A stretch of 64,000 bases of DNA from the IMG/VR virus record IMGVR_UViG_3300014204_000112, positions 64,001-128,000 of that record; one strand, given 5' to 3'. The notes beneath the pieces are model-generated. The model was given only the letters and a program-made list of their open reading frames with translations. It had not been told where the DNA came from and did no database searches. This DNA is from a virus (taxonomy: Duplodnaviria; Caudoviricetes). Below are positions 30,812 to 63,742 of the stretch, piece after piece (positions within the stretch are counted from its first letter, which is position 1; every line of letters starts with the position of its first letter). Both the position numbers and the translations under genes were made by a program.

Positions 30812-33079
30812 TTACATCATTGCTCCTGGCGGAACGTTAGCTTTACCTTTTCCCCTGATCAGAACACCATTTTTATCTTCGGCTAAGTATTCTGCCACTC
30901 CACCGAATTTCTTTACGATTTCTGATTCTTCATGGCCGACCAAACATTCGATCGTTATGAAGTTATTCACCGGATCAACCGTATATTCAATCTGTTTCTC
31001 AGTCAATGCATCAGCAATATCTTGGAGCTTGTCTGCGTCTATCTTGTAGAATCCGCAGTACGGATTGACTGATTCCATTATAGGTAGAGCACTAGTTCCG
31101 GAGGTACCGCTAGAACCTGAAGTTCCTGGGCTAAGTTGAACTGGCATTCCATCCTGATAGTATTCCTGTTTCTTTTCCTCGAGAATCAAATCAACCGTAT
31201 CGTCAATCTCAATCACTGGAACTCCAGGTGATTTGAATTGAGATAGGTCTACTGTTTTCGATTCATTCAATTTTTCGCTTAGGTCACGGTTCATGTTGAA
31301 GAATTCTGAATGAATTGCATTTGGAGCTGCTGACTTGAATGCCGTGTAATCATTGTTGCGAACTGCATCCATTATAGATTCTTTGACTCCAGCGGTAGGA
31401 AGTTCCATCAGCCTTAGATCTTTCTTCAAGTTCAAGTTTCTCGAACGCTTACGCGCAAGTTCCAACTGAAGAGCTATGTCTCGTATCCTGCTCTTGTTTG
31501 CGGCTACGATGTTAGGCTCGTATTCCGGCCGAATTTCCTTTAGTAAGCTTTCAACTTCCCCGTCCGGAACAATAACCAGTCCTACCATGAAACTAGGATA
31601 GAGATTCACTAACTTGTGAAGAGCATTGACTATGGTTTCTTTTTTGAAAGGCTTTGCTTTTGAAGTAGCTCCACAGTGAACGCATACTAACAGGCAAGGA
31701 AGCCCATTCTCGTTGAACAAACCCTGTGCCGATTTTATGTGCCCTGGGTGAATGGGTTGAAAGTCAGAGATGATCAAGTTTACCGGTTTAGTTCTCCTAT
31801 CCTCAATTCCTTTGAAGCTCTCAAAATAACCAGGTTCCTTATCTTCACCAACGAACTCTTTGAATGTTGGAAAGTAATTTTCGTAAATTGCATCTCCCAT
31901 GATTACTTTGCTAATTTTGTCTACCTGAGTGTTCAGGTTGTCTTTCATCTCCTTCGTGAAGAACGATGAGCTTACCCTAATTTTTTTCTTCCTAAACATG
32001 TTGAGGAATACTCGATAGATTTCCTTGAAGTTCGGGTTCGATTCGATTATTTGAGTCACTCTTGCATCGTTCACCAATCCGAAATTAACGTTGAAGTCAT
32101 CTCGTTGTAGGAATTCAGGTATTTGAATGTCAAGGTCACGATACTTTTCTCCGAACTCCTTTATGAATTCTAAGTAAATGTGATTGACCAAGGAAATGTA
32201 CTTTTCTTCGTATGTTTCTCCTGCGACCTTGATTCCTCTAAGTTCGCTGAGCGAGTACTGTTCAATGAAGTTCATTAGGTCGATCACGATGATCCAGATG
32301 TAGTCATCGCTTTTCTTTTGGTTCTTGTCGCTGGCCCTTGCCTTAGCGTTAGCTTGAAAAGCTGGGTCGACCAGTTTCGCTAGGAATACTGGATCCTCAG
32401 TTTTCTTACCTTCCTCGTAGAACCTGAAAACGATTCCCTCAATGTCCTTGTCCAAAGAATCACGAAGGAATGTTGCTTCCATTTTCGGATTAAGGACTGA
32501 CATGATGTACTTCGTGAACGAAACTGTCTTGAACTTTTCGACAAGTTCGTCGAATGGAGTGTAAACGAATTCCTGAATTTTCTTCTTCTGTTCGTCCGTA
32601 AGTTTTCCCTGGAAAATGATTGGCGGTCTTTCGATTCCCAATAGGTCAGCCCATTTGTTCAATTCGTCCCTGCTCTGAACTGTTTCGGAAATATTTCCTC
32701 CAGCGTTCAAAATGTGGATGTAACTTAGAATGAGCTTGTTCTTTGGTAACCTATCGTACGCTATCACCTGAGCTTTCTTGTCAGCAAAGTACTCCATCCC
32801 GAACATGTACTGAACTGGAATCTTTTCGATAGTTTCCGGCGAGAGACTTTCGAAGTACTGAACTGCCGGTTCGAAATAACGACTTAGAACTCTATCGATG
32901 TACGAGAGCTCGCCGTTACGTTTGAAGTACTGGAATTTTGATGAGTTAGGATCAAGTTTCACGCCAAAGAAGGCTCCGTCCATCTTCTCATTAATGATGA
33001 CGGATTTATTAAGGAGATTCTCTATGAATGCCTTACCTTGCTTGTCTAAAACGTCCTTTAAGTGCGATAGTCCTGGCAT
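30812..33079 (-). CDS. RNA ligase-like nucleotidyltransferase fused to a HIGH-family (cytidyltransferase-like) domain
   Basis: Ligase motifs EKMDG (I), EGIVFR (IV) and AKLVD (V); C-terminal FQPIHPGH. Confidence 0.7.
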   Translation of the reverse strand: MPGLSHLKDVLDKQGKAFIENLLNKSVIINEKMDGAFFGVKLDPNSSKFQYFKRNGELSYIDRVLSRYFEPAVQYFESLSPETIEKIPVQYMFGMEYFADKKAQVIAYDRLPKNKLILSYIHILNAGGNISETVQSRDELNKWADLLGIERPPIIFQGKLTDEQKKKIQEFVYTPFDELVEKFKTVSFTKYIMSVLNPKMEATFLRDSLDKDIEGIVFRFYEEGKKTEDPVFLAKLVDPAFQANAKARASDKNQKKSDDYIWIIVIDLMNFIEQYSLSELRGIKVAGETYEEKYISLVNHIYLEFIKEFGEKYRDLDIQIPEFLQRDDFNVNFGLVNDARVTQIIESNPNFKEIYRVFLNMFRKKKIRVSSSFFTKEMKDNLNTQVDKISKVIMGDAIYENYFPTFKEFVGEDKEPGYFESFKGIEDRRTKPVNLIISDFQPIHPGHIKSAQGLFNENGLPCLLVCVHCGATSKAKPFKKETIVNALHKLVNLYPSFMVGLVIVPDGEVESLLKEIRPEYEPNIVAANKSRIRDIALQLELARKRSRNLNLKKDLRLMELPTAGVKESIMDAVRNNDYTAFKSAAPNAIHSEFFNMNRDLSEKLNESKTVDLSQFKSPGVPVIEIDDTVDLILEEKKQEYYQDGMPVQLSPGTSGSSGTSGTSALPIMESVNPYCGFYKIDADKLQDIADALTEKQIEYTVDPVNNFITIECLVGHEESEIVKKFGGVAEYLAEDKNGVLIRGKGKANVPPGAMM

Positions 33080-49268: not shown

Positions 49269-51245
49269 TTACTTTATTGATAGGCAGTCCTCTTTCGCCT
49301 TTTTCGTGATCACCAGGTGATCTCCTTCTTTGACCGTATTGTCTACATAGGCCTCGGCTATGAGGTCTTCCAGGTGTGACTGAATGACTCGTTGTAATGG
49401 TCGAGCTCCGAACTTTTCATCGAAACCCTTTTCGATAAGGAACTCTTTTGCTTTGTCCGTGATTTCGACGAAGTAACCGTTCTCTTCAACTCTTTCCTTC
49501 AGGCTTGCAAGTTCGATGTCAATGATCTTTCCGATGTCGTCTTTCGTGAGAGAGTTGAACGTGATGATGTCATCGATACGATTGATGAATTCTGGGGCGA
49601 ATTGCTTGCTTACTGCCTTTCTTAGAACTTCGTTTGCAAGTTGCTTTTGCCTTTCTACTTGGTCGGCAGTTGCGAAACCTATTCCAGTTCCAAAATCTTG
49701 CAAAGTTTTGATACCAACATTCGATGTCATAATGATCACTGTGTTCTTGAAGTCGACAGTTTTACCCAAACCGTCAGTCAAACGACCATCATCGAGAACT
49801 TGGAGTAGCATGTTGAATATGGATGGATCAGCTTTCTCAATTTCGTCGAGAAGGACCACTGAATATGGTTTGCGTCTTACTTTTTCGGTCAACTGGCCTC
49901 CGCTTTCGTATCCAACGTATCCCGGAGGAGCTCCAGTGATTCGACTGCCTGAGAATTTTTCGCTATATTCGGACATGTCAATGCGGATCAGAGCATCTTC
50001 TGAGTTGAATAGGAACTTTGCTAACTGTTTTGCTAGCTCGCTCTTACCTACACCGCTTGGTCCAATGAAAAGGAACGTACCGATGGGCTTTTTCTTTGAT
50101 TTTAAGCCTGCACGTGAACGTTTTATCGCTCTCGTTAGCTTATGGATGGCATCGTCCTGACCGACTATGAATTTTCTTAGGGATTCTTCCATTCCAGCCA
50201 ACTTTTGTATGTCAGTTCCAGTCATTTTGCTGACTGGGATGCCAGTAATGTTCGAAACTAGCTTAGCAATATCGTCTTCGTTCACTGCAAGGCGATTCGC
50301 TTTAAGAGTTTTTTCCCATTCTCTTTTTGCTTCCGCTATTTCTTCGGCAACCGCTAATGCTCTATCACGTAATTTCGCCGCAGCTTCATACTGCTGTGAA
50401 TTGACAGCATCGTTCTTTTGTTTGATGATTCCTGCTAGCTTTTCTTCGAGATTTTTGATGTTTGCGGGAACAACCACACCGCTTATGTGAACTGTCGCTC
50501 CAGCTTCGTCCATCAGGTCGATTGCTTTGTCCGGAAGCCACCGATCTTGAATGTATCGTTCACTGTACTTGACGCAAGCGTCCAATGCATCGACTGTGTA
50601 CCTCACGGAGTGATGGTCTTCGTACTTTTCTTTGATATTCTCGAGGATTTCTCGAGTTTCTTCCGATGTCGGAGGATTTATGATGATCTGTTGGAACCTA
50701 CGGCTTAAAGCGCCATCCTTTTCGATGGAATTACGAAATTCGTCGATAGTTGTAGCTCCAATGCACTGAATTTCACCACGAGCTAATGCAGGCTTGAGAA
50801 TATTGGCAGCATCGAGCGATCCGCTAGCTGCTCCGGCTCCAACTAGAGCATGAACTTCGTCAATGAACAGAATCATGTTCCTATTGTTCTGAACTTCCTG
50901 AATTATCTGTTCCATGCGCTGTTCGAACTCACCGCGATACTTAGTCCCGGCAACGAGGTTGGCAAGTTCGAGAGCAATGATTCTTTTTCCCAATAGAACC
51001 CTTGGACAGGTCCGGTTAGTGATCATTGCTGCTAAACCCTCCACTATCGCAGTCTTACCTACTCCAGGTTCGCCAATTAGTAATGGATTGTTCTTTTTGC
51101 GTCTCGAAAGTATCTGACTACACCTTTTTATCTCGGCAATTCGCCCAACAACTGGGTCAAGCTTACCGTCGAGTGCAAGTTGAGTCAAATCCTTACCAAA
51201 TGCGTCTACTAGTGGAGTTTTAGTATTTTGCGCTATCTTTACCAT
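49269..51245 (-). CDS. clpC: ClpC/ClpA-family AAA+ ATPase lacking the N-terminal Clp domain
   Basis: GEPGVGKT, FIDEVH, UVR M-domain, GPSGVGKS, GAPPGYVGY, LLDEIEKA and the IGF loop. Confidence 0.92.
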   Translation of the reverse strand: MVKIAQNTKTPLVDAFGKDLTQLALDGKLDPVVGRIAEIKRCSQILSRRKKNNPLLIGEPGVGKTAIVEGLAAMITNRTCPRVLLGKRIIALELANLVAGTKYRGEFEQRMEQIIQEVQNNRNMILFIDEVHALVGAGAASGSLDAANILKPALARGEIQCIGATTIDEFRNSIEKDGALSRRFQQIIINPPTSEETREILENIKEKYEDHHSVRYTVDALDACVKYSERYIQDRWLPDKAIDLMDEAGATVHISGVVVPANIKNLEEKLAGIIKQKNDAVNSQQYEAAAKLRDRALAVAEEIAEAKREWEKTLKANRLAVNEDDIAKLVSNITGIPVSKMTGTDIQKLAGMEESLRKFIVGQDDAIHKLTRAIKRSRAGLKSKKKPIGTFLFIGPSGVGKSELAKQLAKFLFNSEDALIRIDMSEYSEKFSGSRITGAPPGYVGYESGGQLTEKVRRKPYSVVLLDEIEKADPSIFNMLLQVLDDGRLTDGLGKTVDFKNTVIIMTSNVGIKTLQDFGTGIGFATADQVERQKQLANEVLRKAVSKQFAPEFINRIDDIITFNSLTKDDIGKIIDIELASLKERVEENGYFVEITDKAKEFLIEKGFDEKFGARPLQRVIQSHLEDLIAEAYVDNTVKEGDHLVITKKAKEDCLSIK

Positions 51246-55300: not shown

Positions 55301-55768
55301 TTATTTCAATTGTTGACCGAATACCATAGCTAAAATGATTCCGGCTAATGCAGTGAAGATGATCCAAAGGACTCTAGTCACCGTGGTTTTGAAGGAAAGG
55401 ATTTCCTTGTGCTCATCAAGCATTTTCTGGTATTCCTTTTCTTCAGCTTCTTTTTTTGTTTTGAAGGCTTGAAGATCGTGATGTTCAGTAATTAGTTTTT
55501 GAAAATCCTTTTCTTCCGCTTCTGATTTCTTTCTGAATTCGGTGTTCTTATTGACCCGGACAACGATTCCATCCTCAGGGTCAAGTAGCTGACGTTTTAT
55601 GGCACGCAGGTCCTCTTTCATGTCTTCCTGAGTCGAATCAATGTTGGTGATCTTTTCTTGGATCGCCTTCAATTCTCCATTTGGAAGCTGTTTCTTTATT
55701 ATTTCTAAAGCATCAAGGATCTCATTCATCAAGAGATTAACATCGCCATCGCTGCGAGAACCTGCCAT
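55301..55768 (-). CDS. Coiled-coil protein with a C-terminal transmembrane helix
   Basis: VLWIIFTALAGIILAMVF; internal ~24-aa duplication. Confidence 0.7.
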   Translation of the reverse strand: MAGSRSDGDVNLLMNEILDALEIIKKQLPNGELKAIQEKITNIDSTQEDMKEDLRAIKRQLLDPEDGIVVRVNKNTEFRKKSEAEEKDFQKLITEHHDLQAFKTKKEAEEKEYQKMLDEHKEILSFKTTVTRVLWIIFTALAGIILAMVFGQQLK

Positions 55769-55803
55769 TTTCTAACCGAATTTTTTAGTAAAAGTGAGTG
55801 TGC

Positions 55804-56088
55804 TTAGTCTACTGCTGGAGTTTCCTCAGGTTTCTCTCCATCTTCTGGTTCTGCTGGGGTTCCAGCGGCTGCATCAGTATCGTCGAGAACAGTAACGTCA
55901 TCTCCGCCTTCCGTTTCGGTAGCAGGCATTTCCATTTCTGGAGTTGCAGGTTCAGCTGGCATATCTCCACCAGGAGCGGCCATTCCGCCAGATTGAGCTG
56001 CGCAGAATTCTTCGAAATTTAAGATTTTGGTTGAACCTCCAAGATTAGCACCGTCCATGTTAGGTATGTTCATGTTATTGCTGTCCAT
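55804..56088 (-). CDS. Acidic low-complexity protein
   Basis: Motif KILNFEEF; GATAAATA upstream. Confidence 0.6.
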   Translation of the reverse strand: MDSNNMNIPNMDGANLGGSTKILNFEEFCAAQSGGMAAPGGDMPAEPATPEMEMPATETEGGDDVTVLDDTDAAAGTPAEPEDGEKPEETPAVD

Positions 56089-56131
56089 ATTCGTTAACGT
56101 AATTTGGAGTTATTTATCCTGAAGGAGTGGA

Positions 56132-56160
56132 ACAATTTGAGCCTCGCTCTCCCAAATTGT
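56132..56160 (-). other. 3'-UTR hairpin whose loop is complementary to the 5' leader of the same gene
   Basis: acaatttg-ggagagcgaggct-caaattgt. Confidence 0.65.
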
Positions 56161-56161
56161 A

Positions 56162-57085
56162 TTAGGCGGTCAATTTAGTCGAACAGATAGGGCAGGCTTT
56201 CCAGTGGCTTTTCACTTTAGCGCCGCAGTTCGGACATTTTCTACGAACCTCTCCGACCTCGATCGGTTTCGTACTTTCCGGAAGAATCCGGTAAGAATAA
56301 GTATTACAAGCCCACGAATTGAAAGATCCGTAAGTGTCGACCAATTGCTGGTCTGACTTACCTCCCTGTTCTATCCTGCCGGTCTCCAATGATGATTTTG
56401 AAAGTTTACTTCTGACTTTCGGTCCTCGTGGTGAGTCATCTGAAAAACTGTCGCAAAAGTTCAAAGAATCCTGGGAAACATTGTTGCTGCAAGATAAGCT
56501 AGCATTGTTCATGTAATTGCTTACATTCAGGTCGCCAGTCATGCTTGCATTGGCATTGTTTGTGGTGAAAGAGCTTCCTGAGCCAGACACTCCTCCTGTG
56601 TTCGTGGTACCGAAGAAATAGTCATTACGATACAGAGGTTGAGGTGGGCTGATTGTGATCGTTCTTGCTCCGTAAATCCACTGTGTCGTATGACAACCTG
56701 GGTAAACGACCTGTTCATCAAAGAATTCGATCTTCACGAGTCCATTCAGCTGGGCTGCTTCGACTGCTTCGACGGAATTTTCGATTTCGTAGGTGTTGAA
56801 TAGGAACTTGTGATCAACATCAAGAAACCTTTCGAGATATACTCTCTGTCCAGGATTCACGACGATTCCACCACTGGAGACGTTAACTCCATTGATCATG
56901 ATTTTTGCAAGAACTCTTGTTGTTTTGGGGTTCCACAATTCGATCTCGAACGTTGATCCGTTCTTGAGGTAAACATTTGAATCGTAGAGTCTGAGGCGAT
57001 TTCTGTTCACTGTAATGTGAGCAATTGGCCAATTATTGACATTGGAGCGACCCACGTTTAGGGTGCTCGATTGATTTTGGTACAT
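56162..57085 (-). CDS. Hypothetical protein with a C-terminal double zinc ribbon
   Basis: FEIELWNP, LERFLD, ETGRIE.G and CPNCG...CPIC. Confidence 0.8.
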   Translation of the reverse strand: MYQNQSSTLNVGRSNVNNWPIAHITVNRNRLRLYDSNVYLKNGSTFEIELWNPKTTRVLAKIMINGVNVSSGGIVVNPGQRVYLERFLDVDHKFLFNTYEIENSVEAVEAAQLNGLVKIEFFDEQVVYPGCHTTQWIYGARTITISPPQPLYRNDYFFGTTNTGGVSGSGSSFTTNNANASMTGDLNVSNYMNNASLSCSNNVSQDSLNFCDSFSDDSPRGPKVRSKLSKSSLETGRIEQGGKSDQQLVDTYGSFNSWACNTYSYRILPESTKPIEVGEVRRKCPNCGAKVKSHWKACPICSTKLTA

Positions 57086-57103
57086 AGCTTTGGTGCATTA
57101 TTT

Positions 57104-57177
57104 TTGCTCATCTCATTGTGACCGTAGTCGATCACTCGAGGGCCCGCAGGCTCGAGACGAACAGAAGAGCGAGGCTC
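57104..57177 (-). ncRNA. Putative cis-regulatory three-way-junction RNA leader
   Basis: Stem UGUUCGUCUC/GAGAUGAGCA encloses hairpins GCC-UGCG-GGC and GUGAUCG-ACUA-CGGUCAC; the G.U pairs work only on the coding strand. Confidence 0.6.
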
Positions 57178-57190
57178 TATGTTCCGATAC

Positions 57191-57219
57191 TATTTATACC
57201 AATTCTTGAAATTTAGTTT
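57191..57219 (-). promoter_or_regulatory. Overlapping AAAC-N17-TATAAA and late TATAAATA promoter
   Basis: aaac-taaatttcaagaattgg-TATAAATA, ending 13 nt upstream of the leader. Confidence 0.65.
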
Positions 57220-57290
57220 TGAAAACTCCTCGTCCAATTTTCCAGTGGAATGACCTTGTCTCAAAAGCGTTGTCCAGTCACCTATACATG

Positions 57291-57521
57291 TCAATCTTGC
57301 TTACCGCTGATCTGGAGAACAGAGTCCATCGGTACTGACCTTCTAGCGAGGAGGTATTGTAAAGCTTTTCGTATCACGGCAGCAATGTATGAACGACCAT
57401 CGTACTTACACTGGTCCCACAACGAAAGATCGTCGTAAAAACAGAATGGGCCATTGATACCTCTCAGCATCTGGCTGAGCTCGTGGCGATCAGCCGGTTT
57501 GTGTCCTTTGAATACTACCAT
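57291..57521 (-). CDS. Hypothetical protein
   Basis: 76 aa. Confidence 0.45.
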   Translation of the reverse strand: MVVFKGHKPADRHELSQMLRGINGPFCFYDDLSLWDQCKYDGRSYIAAVIRKALQYLLARRSVPMDSVLQISGKQD

Positions 57522-57533
57522 GATGGTTTTTGT

Positions 57534-58010
57534 TTATACTGTACCACTTTTCAAAGTGCCCCGTACTTTCATGATCGCTTTTCCGAGTAAGTTAAGACCT
57601 GGCCATTTGCTTGGTTCCACTCTGATCGCATGATCTGCGTCCATGCCGATTCCCCAGATGCTGTCTACGGGACTCGCTTCTACTATGATTGATTCTCCAG
57701 TATCCATCAGAGCTTCCTTCAACTCGGGATTCTGGGTGAATTTTAGCATGTTACCTTCGTACACGATCCTTTCCTTGTTCTCATCCCATAATTGAGCATT
57801 GAACCCTTGAATTTCACGTCCCAGTTGTTTCTGAACTCGCGGATTGTTCGTTTGCATTATTCTAGCGGCAGTGTTCGGATCTCCCATTAGCATTGCTTTC
57901 TGGTACATCATGTACTGCTCAGCAGTGCAGAAAGTCTTTCCGTTTTCTGTGAATTCGCTCTTGTACCATTGCGAGAACGGACCGTTCCAAAAGAAGTGAT
58001 ATGTTGCCAT
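57534..58010 (-). CDS. NADAR family protein (YbiA-like)
   Basis: FSQWY, TAEQYMMYQKA, LGR, KFTQN, VEASP.D.IWGIG and GLNLLGKAIM.VR. Confidence 0.92.
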   Translation of the reverse strand: MATYHFFWNGPFSQWYKSEFTENGKTFCTAEQYMMYQKAMLMGDPNTAARIMQTNNPRVQKQLGREIQGFNAQLWDENKERIVYEGNMLKFTQNPELKEALMDTGESIIVEASPVDSIWGIGMDADHAIRVEPSKWPGLNLLGKAIMKVRGTLKSGTV

Positions 58011-59586: not shown

Positions 59587-59721
59587 TTATTTATACTCCA
59601 CCTTCACTCTGGACCTGAATTCTATTGGAAATTGATCTCCTGCTGCTTGGAATAGGTCGGCGAAGCATCCATCGACTAAATAAGTTACAGCCCAATCGTC
59701 CGGAGTCCTTACTGACCACAT
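59587..59721 (-). pseudogene. Displaced original 3' end of the DinG-like helicase
   Basis: SVRTPDDWAVTYLVDGCFADLF...* duplicates SIRHKDDWAVTYLVDGCFSDLF in the helicase. Confidence 0.85.
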
Positions 59722-59725
59722 AATC

Positions 59726-60493
59726 TCAATGTTCTAAATATTTCCAATTGCTAAATTTTGAACTTAATAATCTATATCTAATTGTCGTTACGGCTAACAT
59801 CAGTTGGTTAGAGGCATCGTGCAAACTTTCATAGATGATTTCGTCTATTTGAATTCTTTTTTTATTTGGTCCCGGCCGATTTTTGCTAGCTTTTCCAATA
59901 TTGCATTTATGTTCTTCAGTAAATGGTTTTTTAGACTTTCCCTTAAGCCTATCGGAAATTGTCTTCCTGCCAATTTCGCTCTTACTGTATTCTATCAGTT
60001 TTTTAGTAGCTATAGACCTACCGTTGCGTTCTTTTTCGGTATACCCATCAGTCTGCCATCTTTCACTTTTAGTTTTTGCTGCCTTTTTGCCACTTAGCAA
60101 TCTGCGTGATTTATCAATTCGAAAATTAATATCTCTCATGAGTTGACAAAATTCAGGTGATCGTTTTTTGCCAGTATTTGAGAGTTTTCGTTTTTCAATT
60201 ATTTGCATTCGATTTGGATGATTAGTTAATGTATCACCGCCTGTTCCACCACTTGCTATATTATAACCATTTACTTGAGAATTTAAGTTTTTAATCCAAA
60301 ATTTTTCTCTTTCACATAGGCTCTTTTTATTATTACATGTTTCTAAGACTTCCTTTTTAAAATTTTCCAATCCGTATTTTTTAATAGCTAATTTTATAAT
60401 CTTACCAGAACCGAAATAATTCGCTCTATCTTTTTCATCCTTACCTATGTAAAATTTTCCAGTTATTAAATTCGTAATTTTATAGATTTGCAT
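59726..60493 (-). mobile_element. Free-standing GIY-YIG homing endonuclease (Seg-like, NUMOD3)
   Basis: IYKITN...FYIG, YFGSG, E..WI and GYNI..GG; AT-rich. Confidence 0.9.
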
Positions 60494-60524
60494 GTGAGTT
60501 TGTTTTTATTTATATAACTCACAT
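60492..60524 (-). promoter_or_regulatory. 9-bp hairpin enclosing TATAAATA and overlapping the start codon of the GIY-YIG gene
   Basis: atgtgagtt-a-TATAAATA-aaaaca-aactcacATG. Confidence 0.8.
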
Positions 60525-60531
60525 AATGGTT

Positions 60532-62274
60532 TTACTTACGTACCATAGTTAATCTATTTTTAATTAAATCATCGTTGTGCAAGTCAGACTCACGAAATAA
60601 ATCCGAAAAGCAACCGTCGACCAAGTAAGTGACAGCCCAATCATCTTTATGTCTAATACTACGACCTAGTCCCTGCAGTACGGAAATTTGTGTCTTCCAG
60701 GTGTACCACTTTTGCGAGAACTTGAGCTTTGCAGCTACATACTTGTCACCGAGATGGGGGTACGGAACTTTCATGAACACCTGGAAGCGAGAAAGTTCGT
60801 CGATTAGGTTCAAACCTTCGAGCAAGGAAGGACCCATGAGGACCAGTCCCTGTTTCTTCTTCATTTTCTTCAGCATCGTGTCCTTCTCTTCCGATCCTTT
60901 GTACAGCAGGACCCTCTTGCTCACATTTTTGGGTAAAGCCTTCCACAATTTCTGGCCAAGCTCATAAGAACCAGTGTGAATTATTCCGGAATCCTCTGGG
61001 TGTGAGTTAAGTATGTTCACGAGGGTGTTTACTCCCCATTCGAAGTTATCCTCTAGGAATCTGGCAGACATTTTCTTGCCTGGATAGTAAATGATTGGCG
61101 AATTCTCCCAATTGAAATGAGAATCCATCTTGAAGTACTTAGCATTCTTTATTCCGTGATTGCGCATGAAGTCTGCTGGATTGCCCATCGTTGCAGTCAT
61201 TAACAACTTGAAACCGAATTGATTGAAGAAGTGTTTTCCCAAGAGGTAGTACTCATCGATGCAGTTAAAAACTATGCTCGTATCGTTCGGGTTTTTCACC
61301 ATCTTCTCGACTCCGACCTTGTCAATGATCTCGCAGTAATCTTCGAGCTTGCAGTGAACGTCCTTGCACCAGTCAGTGAGATTGAACACGACAAGCCAAT
61401 CCTTAGGCACGTCTCGTCCTTCGAATTCCCTTCCTGCTACTTCGCGAATGTCTGCGGTTGCTCCGACTACTCTCTCGTAAATCTTAGTGATTTCTTTCAG
61501 TTTTTCTAGCAGAACTCGGTTATCTTCTTCAGCGTACACATCATCGACTAAAGCTGTGAGCCTTTCGATGTCAATTCGTGGAAGTCTCAAGCCGATGTCG
61601 AACATGTCGCTTATCAGCTTCTCAACTTTCTTGTAGACTTCTCTTGAAACTATTGGGCTGAAATGACTTTGGGCGATGTCGAGTATCTTGTGAGCTTCAT
61701 CGCATACGACGAAGTCCCTCTTTGCAAATGGTGGCTGCTTGCCGTTCTCTACTTGTTTCTTGTCAACGTAATTCCTTTGAATGAGAGCGTACGGATAGGT
61801 CAGTAAAGCGAGAGGAGATCTGATTGCTTTTCTTCTTGCCATCAAGTAACCGCAGTGCTTGAAACAGGTCAAGGATTCGGCAGCATCGTAGGAAATTCCC
61901 TTGCTCTTGCAGTCTCCAACTGAGAACTTCTCGCCGTTGACCGCACAGTTGTAATTGTCAACGCCCTTTATGTTTCCCCAGTTCCATAACTGCATTTTCT
62001 TGAAGTCATTGACGTACTGCTGGTGGAGAACTAAATCTGACGCTAGAATGTAACCTCGTTTACTGTGATTTGTTAACACGCCTGCGACTATCATAGCGAT
62101 CCAACTTTTTCCACTCCCAGTAGGAGCATCCAATAAATAAATTCCATTTGGATTTTCAAAATAAGATTGAAGTATATCAATGATAATTTCCATTTGTTGT
62201 GGTCTAAATTTAAAATTAGAACCTAACTGCGTTTCTGTGAATTTCAATATTTCCTTTTCGAAATCAATTTCCAT
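60532..62274 (-). CDS. DinG/XPD-like SF2 helicase
   Basis: RPQQ, APTGSGKS, Cys cluster, DEAH, MTAT, EGLNL, KVPYP and QGLGRSIR..DD.AVTY. Confidence 0.9.
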   Translation of the reverse strand: MEIDFEKEILKFTETQLGSNFKFRPQQMEIIIDILQSYFENPNGIYLLDAPTGSGKSWIAMIVAGVLTNHSKRGYILASDLVLHQQYVNDFKKMQLWNWGNIKGVDNYNCAVNGEKFSVGDCKSKGISYDAAESLTCFKHCGYLMARRKAIRSPLALLTYPYALIQRNYVDKKQVENGKQPPFAKRDFVVCDEAHKILDIAQSHFSPIVSREVYKKVEKLISDMFDIGLRLPRIDIERLTALVDDVYAEEDNRVLLEKLKEITKIYERVVGATADIREVAGREFEGRDVPKDWLVVFNLTDWCKDVHCKLEDYCEIIDKVGVEKMVKNPNDTSIVFNCIDEYYLLGKHFFNQFGFKLLMTATMGNPADFMRNHGIKNAKYFKMDSHFNWENSPIIYYPGKKMSARFLEDNFEWGVNTLVNILNSHPEDSGIIHTGSYELGQKLWKALPKNVSKRVLLYKGSEEKDTMLKKMKKKQGLVLMGPSLLEGLNLIDELSRFQVFMKVPYPHLGDKYVAAKLKFSQKWYTWKTQISVLQGLGRSIRHKDDWAVTYLVDGCFSDLFRESDLHNDDLIKNRLTMVRK

Positions 62275-63662: not shown

Positions 63663-63742
63663 TGCCCAGAACAGGAATCGAACCTGCACTCTTTCGAACT
63701 GGTTCCTAAAACCAGCGTGTCTACCAATTTCACCATCTGGGC
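63663..63742 (-). tRNA. tRNA-Leu (anticodon TAG), CCA not encoded
   Basis: Acceptor stem GCCCAGA/TCTGGGC, D loop TGGTAGAC, anticodon arm CTGGT-TTTAGGA-ACCAG, long variable arm and TTCGATT. Confidence 0.93.

Follow-up and report, generated by a model that had tools for sequence, protein, structure and literature searches.

The mRNA of a single gene in a Caudoviricetes phage (IMG/VR record IMGVR_UViG_3300014204_000112) contains two RNA structures, namely a three-way junction in the leader and a long-range helix, P0, by which the first bases of the predicted transcript pair with the 3' untranslated region (UTR) directly past the stop codon. As shown by the comparison of homologous loci, both structures are real and specific for the sense strand, and in hundreds of large and huge phages they have been preserved by compensatory mutations; on this comparative evidence they are under purifying selection and linked in cis to one gene, and apparently they have not been described before. 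A first-pass annotation of the window (i.e. the whole 64,000-nt stretch analysed, positions 64,001 to 128,000 of the record) had proposed a cis-acting system selected on the sense RNA, with a structured leader and a 5'-3' fold-back, and this core proposal now has strong comparative support. With regard to function, we hold it to be somewhat better than an even bet that the structure forms a cis-acting closed late mRNA, the 5' end of which is kept paired, probably protecting the complete message, and the junction of which probably binds a factor.

The gene, its promoter and its product

The gene occupies positions 56162-57085 of the minus strand, on which all the features of the message lie, and it was on this strand that the promoter, 12-mer, junction, open reading frame (ORF) and complement were found at the coordinates first assigned to them. 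It is preceded by the T4-type late-promoter-like octamer TATAAATA (57191-57198), which matches exactly the element found at -13 to -6 before the start of T4-type late units and of which the 64-kb window contains eight copies against 2.4 expected, a number reached in none of 100 shuffles. In T4 late promoters, the distance from the octamer to +1 follows a spacing rule, by which the start of this transcript is predicted at G57185, after a 5-nt spacer. Since the hexamer GGAACA, one of the strands of P0, begins exactly 5 nt past TATAAATA, the transcript's first base is itself predicted to be paired; for this promoter-to-helix spacing only the window's own locus was used, the version based on all loci being blurred by over-extended duplexes. 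At the other end of the leader, an A-rich, unstructured spacer with the ribosome landing region (57086-57104) is, according to the fold, not sequestered by the junction, and a short upstream ORF starting from ATG 57098 is not conserved in relatives. Downstream of the gene, a second late-promoter-like octamer, GATAAATA (56111-56118), is placed for the next gene (ATG 56088); a scan of 55700-57500 for intrinsic terminators found none, and therefore none between the 3' arm of P0 and GATAAATA.

The 307-residue product (P0001) has just sub-threshold zinc-ribbon matches in Pfam and no informative PHROG. In the family alignment the N-domain is conserved, the low-complexity insert varies and the C-domain contains a single CxxC...CxxC ribbon, so that the double zinc ribbon initially read from the sequence is reduced to a single, C-terminal one. 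In the AlphaFold model, residues 17-125 and 233-270 together form an Ig-like beta-sandwich, and the low-complexity insert (129-229) is disordered. Foldseek against the PDB and a wide VIA-align search returned generic Ig-like folds alone (Z of about 6), and in BFVD the model matches uncharacterised proteins from giant viruses, nudiviruses, iridoviruses (some of them ICP-18-like immediate-early proteins) and WSSV (wsv390), with Foldseek E-values down to 6e-11, which may reflect an old virus-wide Ig-like module. The family is made up of hypothetical proteins in at least 197 clusters; tblastn against IMG/VR yields more than 480 relatives, and in INPHARED the members belong to Prevotella Lak megaphages and to uncultured phages of 460-735 kb (blastn of the locus itself against INPHARED gave no match). 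Among the contigs of prokaryote genomes, just two MAG contigs, phage-like, carry a family member.

In some relatives, a SHOCT domain takes the place of the zinc ribbon at the C-terminus. One of them, L252 (from LR745206.1, 634,780 bp, the gene occupying 1138-2160 of the locus), has no ribbon and yet keeps the junction leader, as a weak match (18.7 bits) to the covariance model R1 described below, and a 5'/3' helix of 8 bp, behind which a terminator lies; thus, the RNA tracks the N-domain of the protein rather than its zinc ribbon.

The three-way junction of the leader

Folding, covariance modelling and covariation all lead to a 59-nt three-way junction at 57105-57163. It is closed by P1 (UGUUCGUCUC/GAGAUGAGCA, 57163-57154 with 57114-57105), which is followed by P2 (57153-57149 with 57144-57140; loop UGCG), the linker J2/3 (UCGA, 57139-57136), P3 (GUGAUCG/CGGUCAC, 57135-57129 with 57124-57118; loop ACUA) and the linker J3/1 (AAU, 57117-57115). 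The fold is more stable than those of dinucleotide shuffles (z = -2.56), with P1 and P3 as they had been drawn in the first-pass annotation; its version of P2 has to be replaced by the five pairs supported by the family alignment, one of which is an A.C mismatch in the window. For the same reason, the claim that all non-Watson-Crick pairs are G.U on the sense strand stands for P1, P3 and the extension of the long-range helix, and fails for P2. The distance from P1 to the AUG, given as about 18 nt, is 19 nt by recount.

Conservation of the leader extends well beyond the closest relatives. In these (81% protein identity), the leader, taken from promoter to AUG, agrees at about 97% of its positions and the 3' element without any difference, and the DNA upstream of the promoter is unalignable; in distant ones (32-50% identity), single-sequence folds yield the same leader shape. 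The shared order of elements is P1, P2 without a linker, U-N-G-A, P3, R-A-W, the 3' strand of P1 and an open A-rich spacer of roughly 18-35 nt to the AUG. In the consensus derived from a 28-sequence alignment, 14 of the 15 pairs exhibit compensatory changes. The covariance model R1 finds exactly one match per locus in 53/53 loci, always just upstream of the gene, and further matches in 33/40 additional loci, including LR756504, LR756500, LR756501 and LR745206 and extending to phages of 462-735 kb. In six whole records of 214-636 kb there is one match per genome, that of the 214-kb genome from which the window comes being at 57106-57159 (55 bits). In the R1 alignment, 94.1% of the cells are paired, compared with 70.9% in shuffles and 37-50% in controls with slid partners, and 14 of the 15 pairs have changed on both their sides. 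Three positions of the leader often have G.U (33/45, 23/46 and 39/45), a pair that the opposite strand cannot make, and the fold can therefore be assigned to the sense strand. Among the unpaired bases, 47/47 distinct sequences agree in the U, G and A of J2/3 and in the middle A of J3/1, and both the length and the sequence of the loops change freely; only about five unpaired bases are invariant overall.

No Rfam family explains the leader: at the gathering threshold, Rfam 15 finds just a tRNA (63663-63742) in the window, and at E <= 1 no leader match is obtained in eight diverse loci. Nor is an element of this type mentioned in the main text of a paper that presents over 10,000 candidate structured RNAs of viruses. 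With respect to its tertiary structure, the G-A ... R-A bases that flank P3 could make tandem sheared pairs in the manner of k-turn or k-junction motifs, which is to be taken as a lead only. As a separate observation, the AU-rich leaders of two Lak homologues (L250 and L251, from the Prevotella Lak-C1 and Lak-B4 megaphages) are missed by R1, although their minimum free energy folds contain the same three-way junction; both genes have in-frame TAG codons, fitting the recoded stop of Lak phages.

The helix between the two ends of the transcript

In the window, the 12-mer GAGCCUCGCUCU (57177-57166) lies 13 nt after TATAAATA, and its exact complement AGAGCGAGGCUC (56150-56139) is found 11 nt past the stop codon, as had been noticed at the outset. 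They are the sole two copies in 64 kb and make up the best inverted repeat of the region. The proposed extension of this perfect core to 15 bp by UCU/GGG wobble pairs was likewise borne out, bringing the core strands to 57163-57177 and 56139-56153, the latter starting 8-11 nt past the stop codon. The minimum-energy fold of the whole 1060-nt mRNA contains the pairing of 57177-57166 with 56139-56150 and adds a second, distal part (57184-57180 with 56130-56134), in which GGAACA (57180-57185), the predicted first six bases of the transcript, faces UGUUCC (56129-56134). P0 is therefore a two-part helix of about 21 bp, consisting of GGAACA/UGUUCC (including G57185-C56129), a 2x4 internal loop and then the 15 pairs with the wobble extension, with a duplex energy of about -38 kcal/mol. 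The distal part is kept in all class-A relatives, one of which (L034) has a G.U in it.

When 5' UTR-3' UTR complementarity was scored for the 117 ORFs of the window, this gene stood out clearly with 38 (mean 17.6, sd 3.3; next best score 26), and none of 2000 shuffles attained its value. The 3' arm had also been described as displayed in the loop of a local hairpin, ACAAUUUG/CAAAUUGU (56131-56160). Class A does retain the core of this stem, in which one U-A pair is exchanged for A-U; however, at -4.9 kcal/mol the hairpin is weak, the minimum-energy fold lacks it, and it competes with distal P0. As P0 extends to the predicted +1, the 3' strand of the hairpin more probably pairs with the first bases of the transcript, the hairpin being an alternative.

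Further evidence for P0 comes from relatives, in which its position is constant (5' arm beside P1, about 85-108 nt before the AUG; 3' arm about 9-16 nt past the stop) and its sequence is not. At least 15 unrelated versions of the arms occupy this position, such as UAGAGCCUGAC/GUCAGGCUCUA (L013 and others), UUAGAGCCUCUC/GAGAGGCUCUAA (L130 and others), CUGGGGAGCC/GGCUCCCCAG (L114 and others), UGAAACCUUGUU/AACAAGGUUUCA (L047 and others) and UGCCUUUUACC/GGUAAAAGGCA (L066), arms of 18 bp on each side in both L088 and L091, and AAGUGGUGCCUAAC (L194), CACCUUAACUUA (L087), AUGACCUUGUG (L246), CUCACUUUGUU (L248) and GCUGUUCG (L252), each with its complement. Cognate arms score 28-41 compared with a mean of 16-17 for non-cognate ones, values that 0-6 of 2000 shuffles reach in nine classes; the score was that of an ungapped helix, since an unrestricted duplexfold energy matrix proved too noisy. 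Within classes, changes are compensated or go to wobble pairs, as a register shift with matched changes in L020, a U:A to A:U swap in L046 and G.U pairs gained in L034, L048, L092 and L245. By symmetric scoring, the mismatches comprise 13 G.U and 3 A.C. Thus, in homologues both the junction and the 5'/3' complementarity, the loss of which would have spoken against the system, are kept, with compensatory changes in each.

If small loops are allowed, many of the helices measure 19-25 bp, and the range across lineages is 8 to about 25 bp. Some lineages have no P0. In classes H and I, a local hairpin occupies the site of the 5' arm; in class G, L031, L077, L247 and Lak, P1 is 10-12 bp long. A paired transcript start thus appears to be the common denominator, and the 3' UTR is its usual but not its sole partner. 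In classes G (L058, L074, L084 and similar) and H (L041, L045, L056), the P3 loop reads UUCACGG(A) or UCACGAG, and a complement to it occurs in the 3' terminator hairpin's loop or past the stop (UCACGG/CCGUGA and UCACGAG/CUCGUGA); a kissing contact of this kind could replace P0. The match of the P3 loop with the terminator loop is recurrent, but it does not rise above shuffles and was rejected.

Possible functions of the closed message

In the mechanism that we favour, transcription from TATAAATA would begin at the predicted G57185, the first ~21 bases of the transcript would pair with the 3' UTR, and the junction P1-P3 would sit two bases beyond P0, followed by the open ribosome landing site. 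P0 would leave no single-stranded 5' end, and 5'-end-dependent decay (by RppH and RNase E, or by RNase J/Y) could then not engage. Since the pairing partner is not transcribed until the stop codon has been passed, protection would be confined to complete transcripts, and because both arms lie outside the path of the ribosome, translation need not melt the helix. End protection leaves the invariant bases of the junction unexplained, which suggests a bound factor: most likely, the junction would be a docking or architectural module, and the simplest guess is that the encoded protein itself docks there, the SHOCT variant indicating that the zinc ribbon would not be required. Several points weigh against this mechanism. 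Since protection of an end needs neither the invariant bases nor the three-way shape, it accounts for just part of the element; in the window's class no terminator follows the 3' arm, and the message may run into the next gene, in which case P0 would not protect a 3' end; moreover, the hosts probably span phyla with different RNases.

Individual features of the message have counterparts elsewhere. 5'-Terminal stabiliser stem-loops, e.g. in the leader of E. coli ompA, provide a paired 5' terminus, as is found in all the phage lineages, most of which obtain the partner strand from 1 kb away. hok/Sok-type mRNAs (tac/fbi) are closed at full length by base pairing of their 5' and 3' ends, a looser parallel that the first-pass annotation had drawn and that, among its suggestions, comes nearest to the architecture found; these mRNAs encode a small membrane toxin, have an antisense RNA and are activated by 3' trimming, whereas the phage gene encodes a 307-residue Ig-like protein and its short leader ORF is not conserved. 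The closest documented case for P0 is the hbs mRNA of B. subtilis, in which a 14-bp helix that joins the 5' UTR to the 3' UTR modulates cleavage by RNase Y (Braun, Durand, Condon 2017; PMC5737220). The phage message has a helix of the same kind within one mRNA, with its 12-bp perfect core and about 21 bp in total; it differs in that the extreme 5' end is paired, beside a conserved three-way junction, and in that it covaries across hundreds of phages, but hbs, a single bacterial gene, has experimental support, and P0 is known from sequence comparison. Pairing of 3' and 5' UTRs in the same mRNA also occurs in icaR of S. aureus, another looser parallel, where the 3' UTR contacts the Shine-Dalgarno region and represses translation (PMC3868564); in the phage message, the 3' arm pairs instead with 57185-57163, about 80-100 nt before the AUG, at the start of the transcript.

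Intramolecular pairing between 5' and 3' UTRs is known from only a handful of bacterial messages, from one species each, and the phage case contributes at least 15 versions from hundreds of phages. It therefore offers a natural and well-replicated system for the role of closing a prokaryotic-type mRNA, be it protection from decay, quality control of complete transcripts or recruitment of factors; arms and junction are compact enough to be transferred to reporters. It also marks a near-universal, uncharacterised gene of huge phages as being under unusual post-transcriptional control.

The junction and the end-to-end helix might also act as one recognition platform, which a phage factor, a universal host factor or the encoded protein itself would read, stabilisation or translation being thereby reserved for messages that are complete and paired at their ends. 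We put this forward tentatively, as a possibility well short of even odds; if true, it would be the phage counterpart of the eukaryotic closed-loop mRNA, from jumbo phages of 200 kb to megaphages of 735 kb.

Rather doubtful is a feedback operator, the autoregulatory leader of the initial suggestions, in which the protein would bind the junction, or the junction together with P0, and feed back on its own translation or stability. Such operators are well known from the leaders of ribosomal-protein genes and from T4 gp32, gp43 and RegA; the strict association of the RNA with one gene family, once per genome, the resemblance of the invariant junction bases to a recognition site and the presence, in most members, of a zinc ribbon beside basic residues would fit with it. 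Yet the ribosome landing site lies outside the junction, L252 keeps leader and helix with a SHOCT domain in place of the ribbon, and the generic Ig-like fold has no known RNA-binding relative.

A licensing switch of the hok/aapA type, in which the 5' arm would mask the ribosome landing site or start codon until its stronger 3' partner is transcribed, is unlikely. Short matches between the 5' arm and the ribosome-binding site (RBS) do exist, namely UCUGG/CCAGA in three class-C members, UGCCUUU/AAAGGUA in L066 and ACAUAG/CUAUGU in the window, where (57083-57185, minus strand) ACAUAG of the distal P0 strand (57183-57178) complements CUAUGU across the start codon and, with GG/CC, gives eight pairs with one mismatch, which is not significant alone. 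However, the best helices between the 5' segment and the initiation region are of 5-8 bp and are reached by 100-985 of 1000 shuffles in most classes, so that this test does not support hok-like masking of the RBS; the few better scores, including that of the window, stem from promoter DNA upstream of the predicted +1, and in the window the P0 core shares no bases with the anti-AUG hexamer.

Processing of P0 by RNase III, for which the flanking stems of rRNA and the T7 sites are precedents, or joining of the ends by a phage RNA ligase, a processing stem and a circularisation substrate having been among the initial suggestions, is very improbable. It is true that P0, in the window's class and several others, extends over about two helical turns with an internal loop, and that the phage encodes, as was then noted, an RNA ligase-like protein, namely a 755-residue protein with an N-terminal RNA_ligase domain (PF09414, E = 7e-9) at 30812-33079 (minus strand). 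However, the helix varies in length from one lineage to another and is exchanged for a local hairpin in some, the two ends of the message belong to opposing strands of the helix, which is not a geometry for nick sealing on a template, there is no bulge-helix-bulge, and nothing links the ligase gene to this message.

A metabolite riboswitch in the leader, another of the initial suggestions, is very unlikely: the element is a compact, conserved 5' UTR junction absent from Rfam, but it combines its few invariant unpaired bases with variable loops, has no alternative terminator and no expression platform overlapping the RBS (the spacer being open), and precedes a gene whose product has no metabolic signature. 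That the arms are inverted repeats of the DNA, as in an invertible or mobile cassette, or arose by chance can practically be discounted, even though perfect 12-bp inverted repeats bracket the gene and not its promoter, since the mismatches are biased to sense-strand G.U, the helix begins at the predicted +1 with its other arm just past the stop codon, the inverted orientation occurs in none of more than 80 loci, no recombinase is found among the flanking ORFs checked, and the existence of at least 15 covarying versions excludes chance.

As to the surroundings of the gene, a NADAR-domain protein (PF08719, E = 3e-54) is encoded two genes upstream (57534-58010, minus strand). A GIY-YIG-type homing endonuclease (phrog_314; 59726-60493, minus strand) is located directly downstream of a DinG-like helicase (phrog_2488; 60532-62274, minus strand), and exact copies of TATAAATA are present around these two genes, at 59588-59595 and 60507-60514. 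On the other side, a Lon-like ATP-dependent protease (phrog_4871, E = 9e-242) is encoded at 49269-51245 (minus strand).
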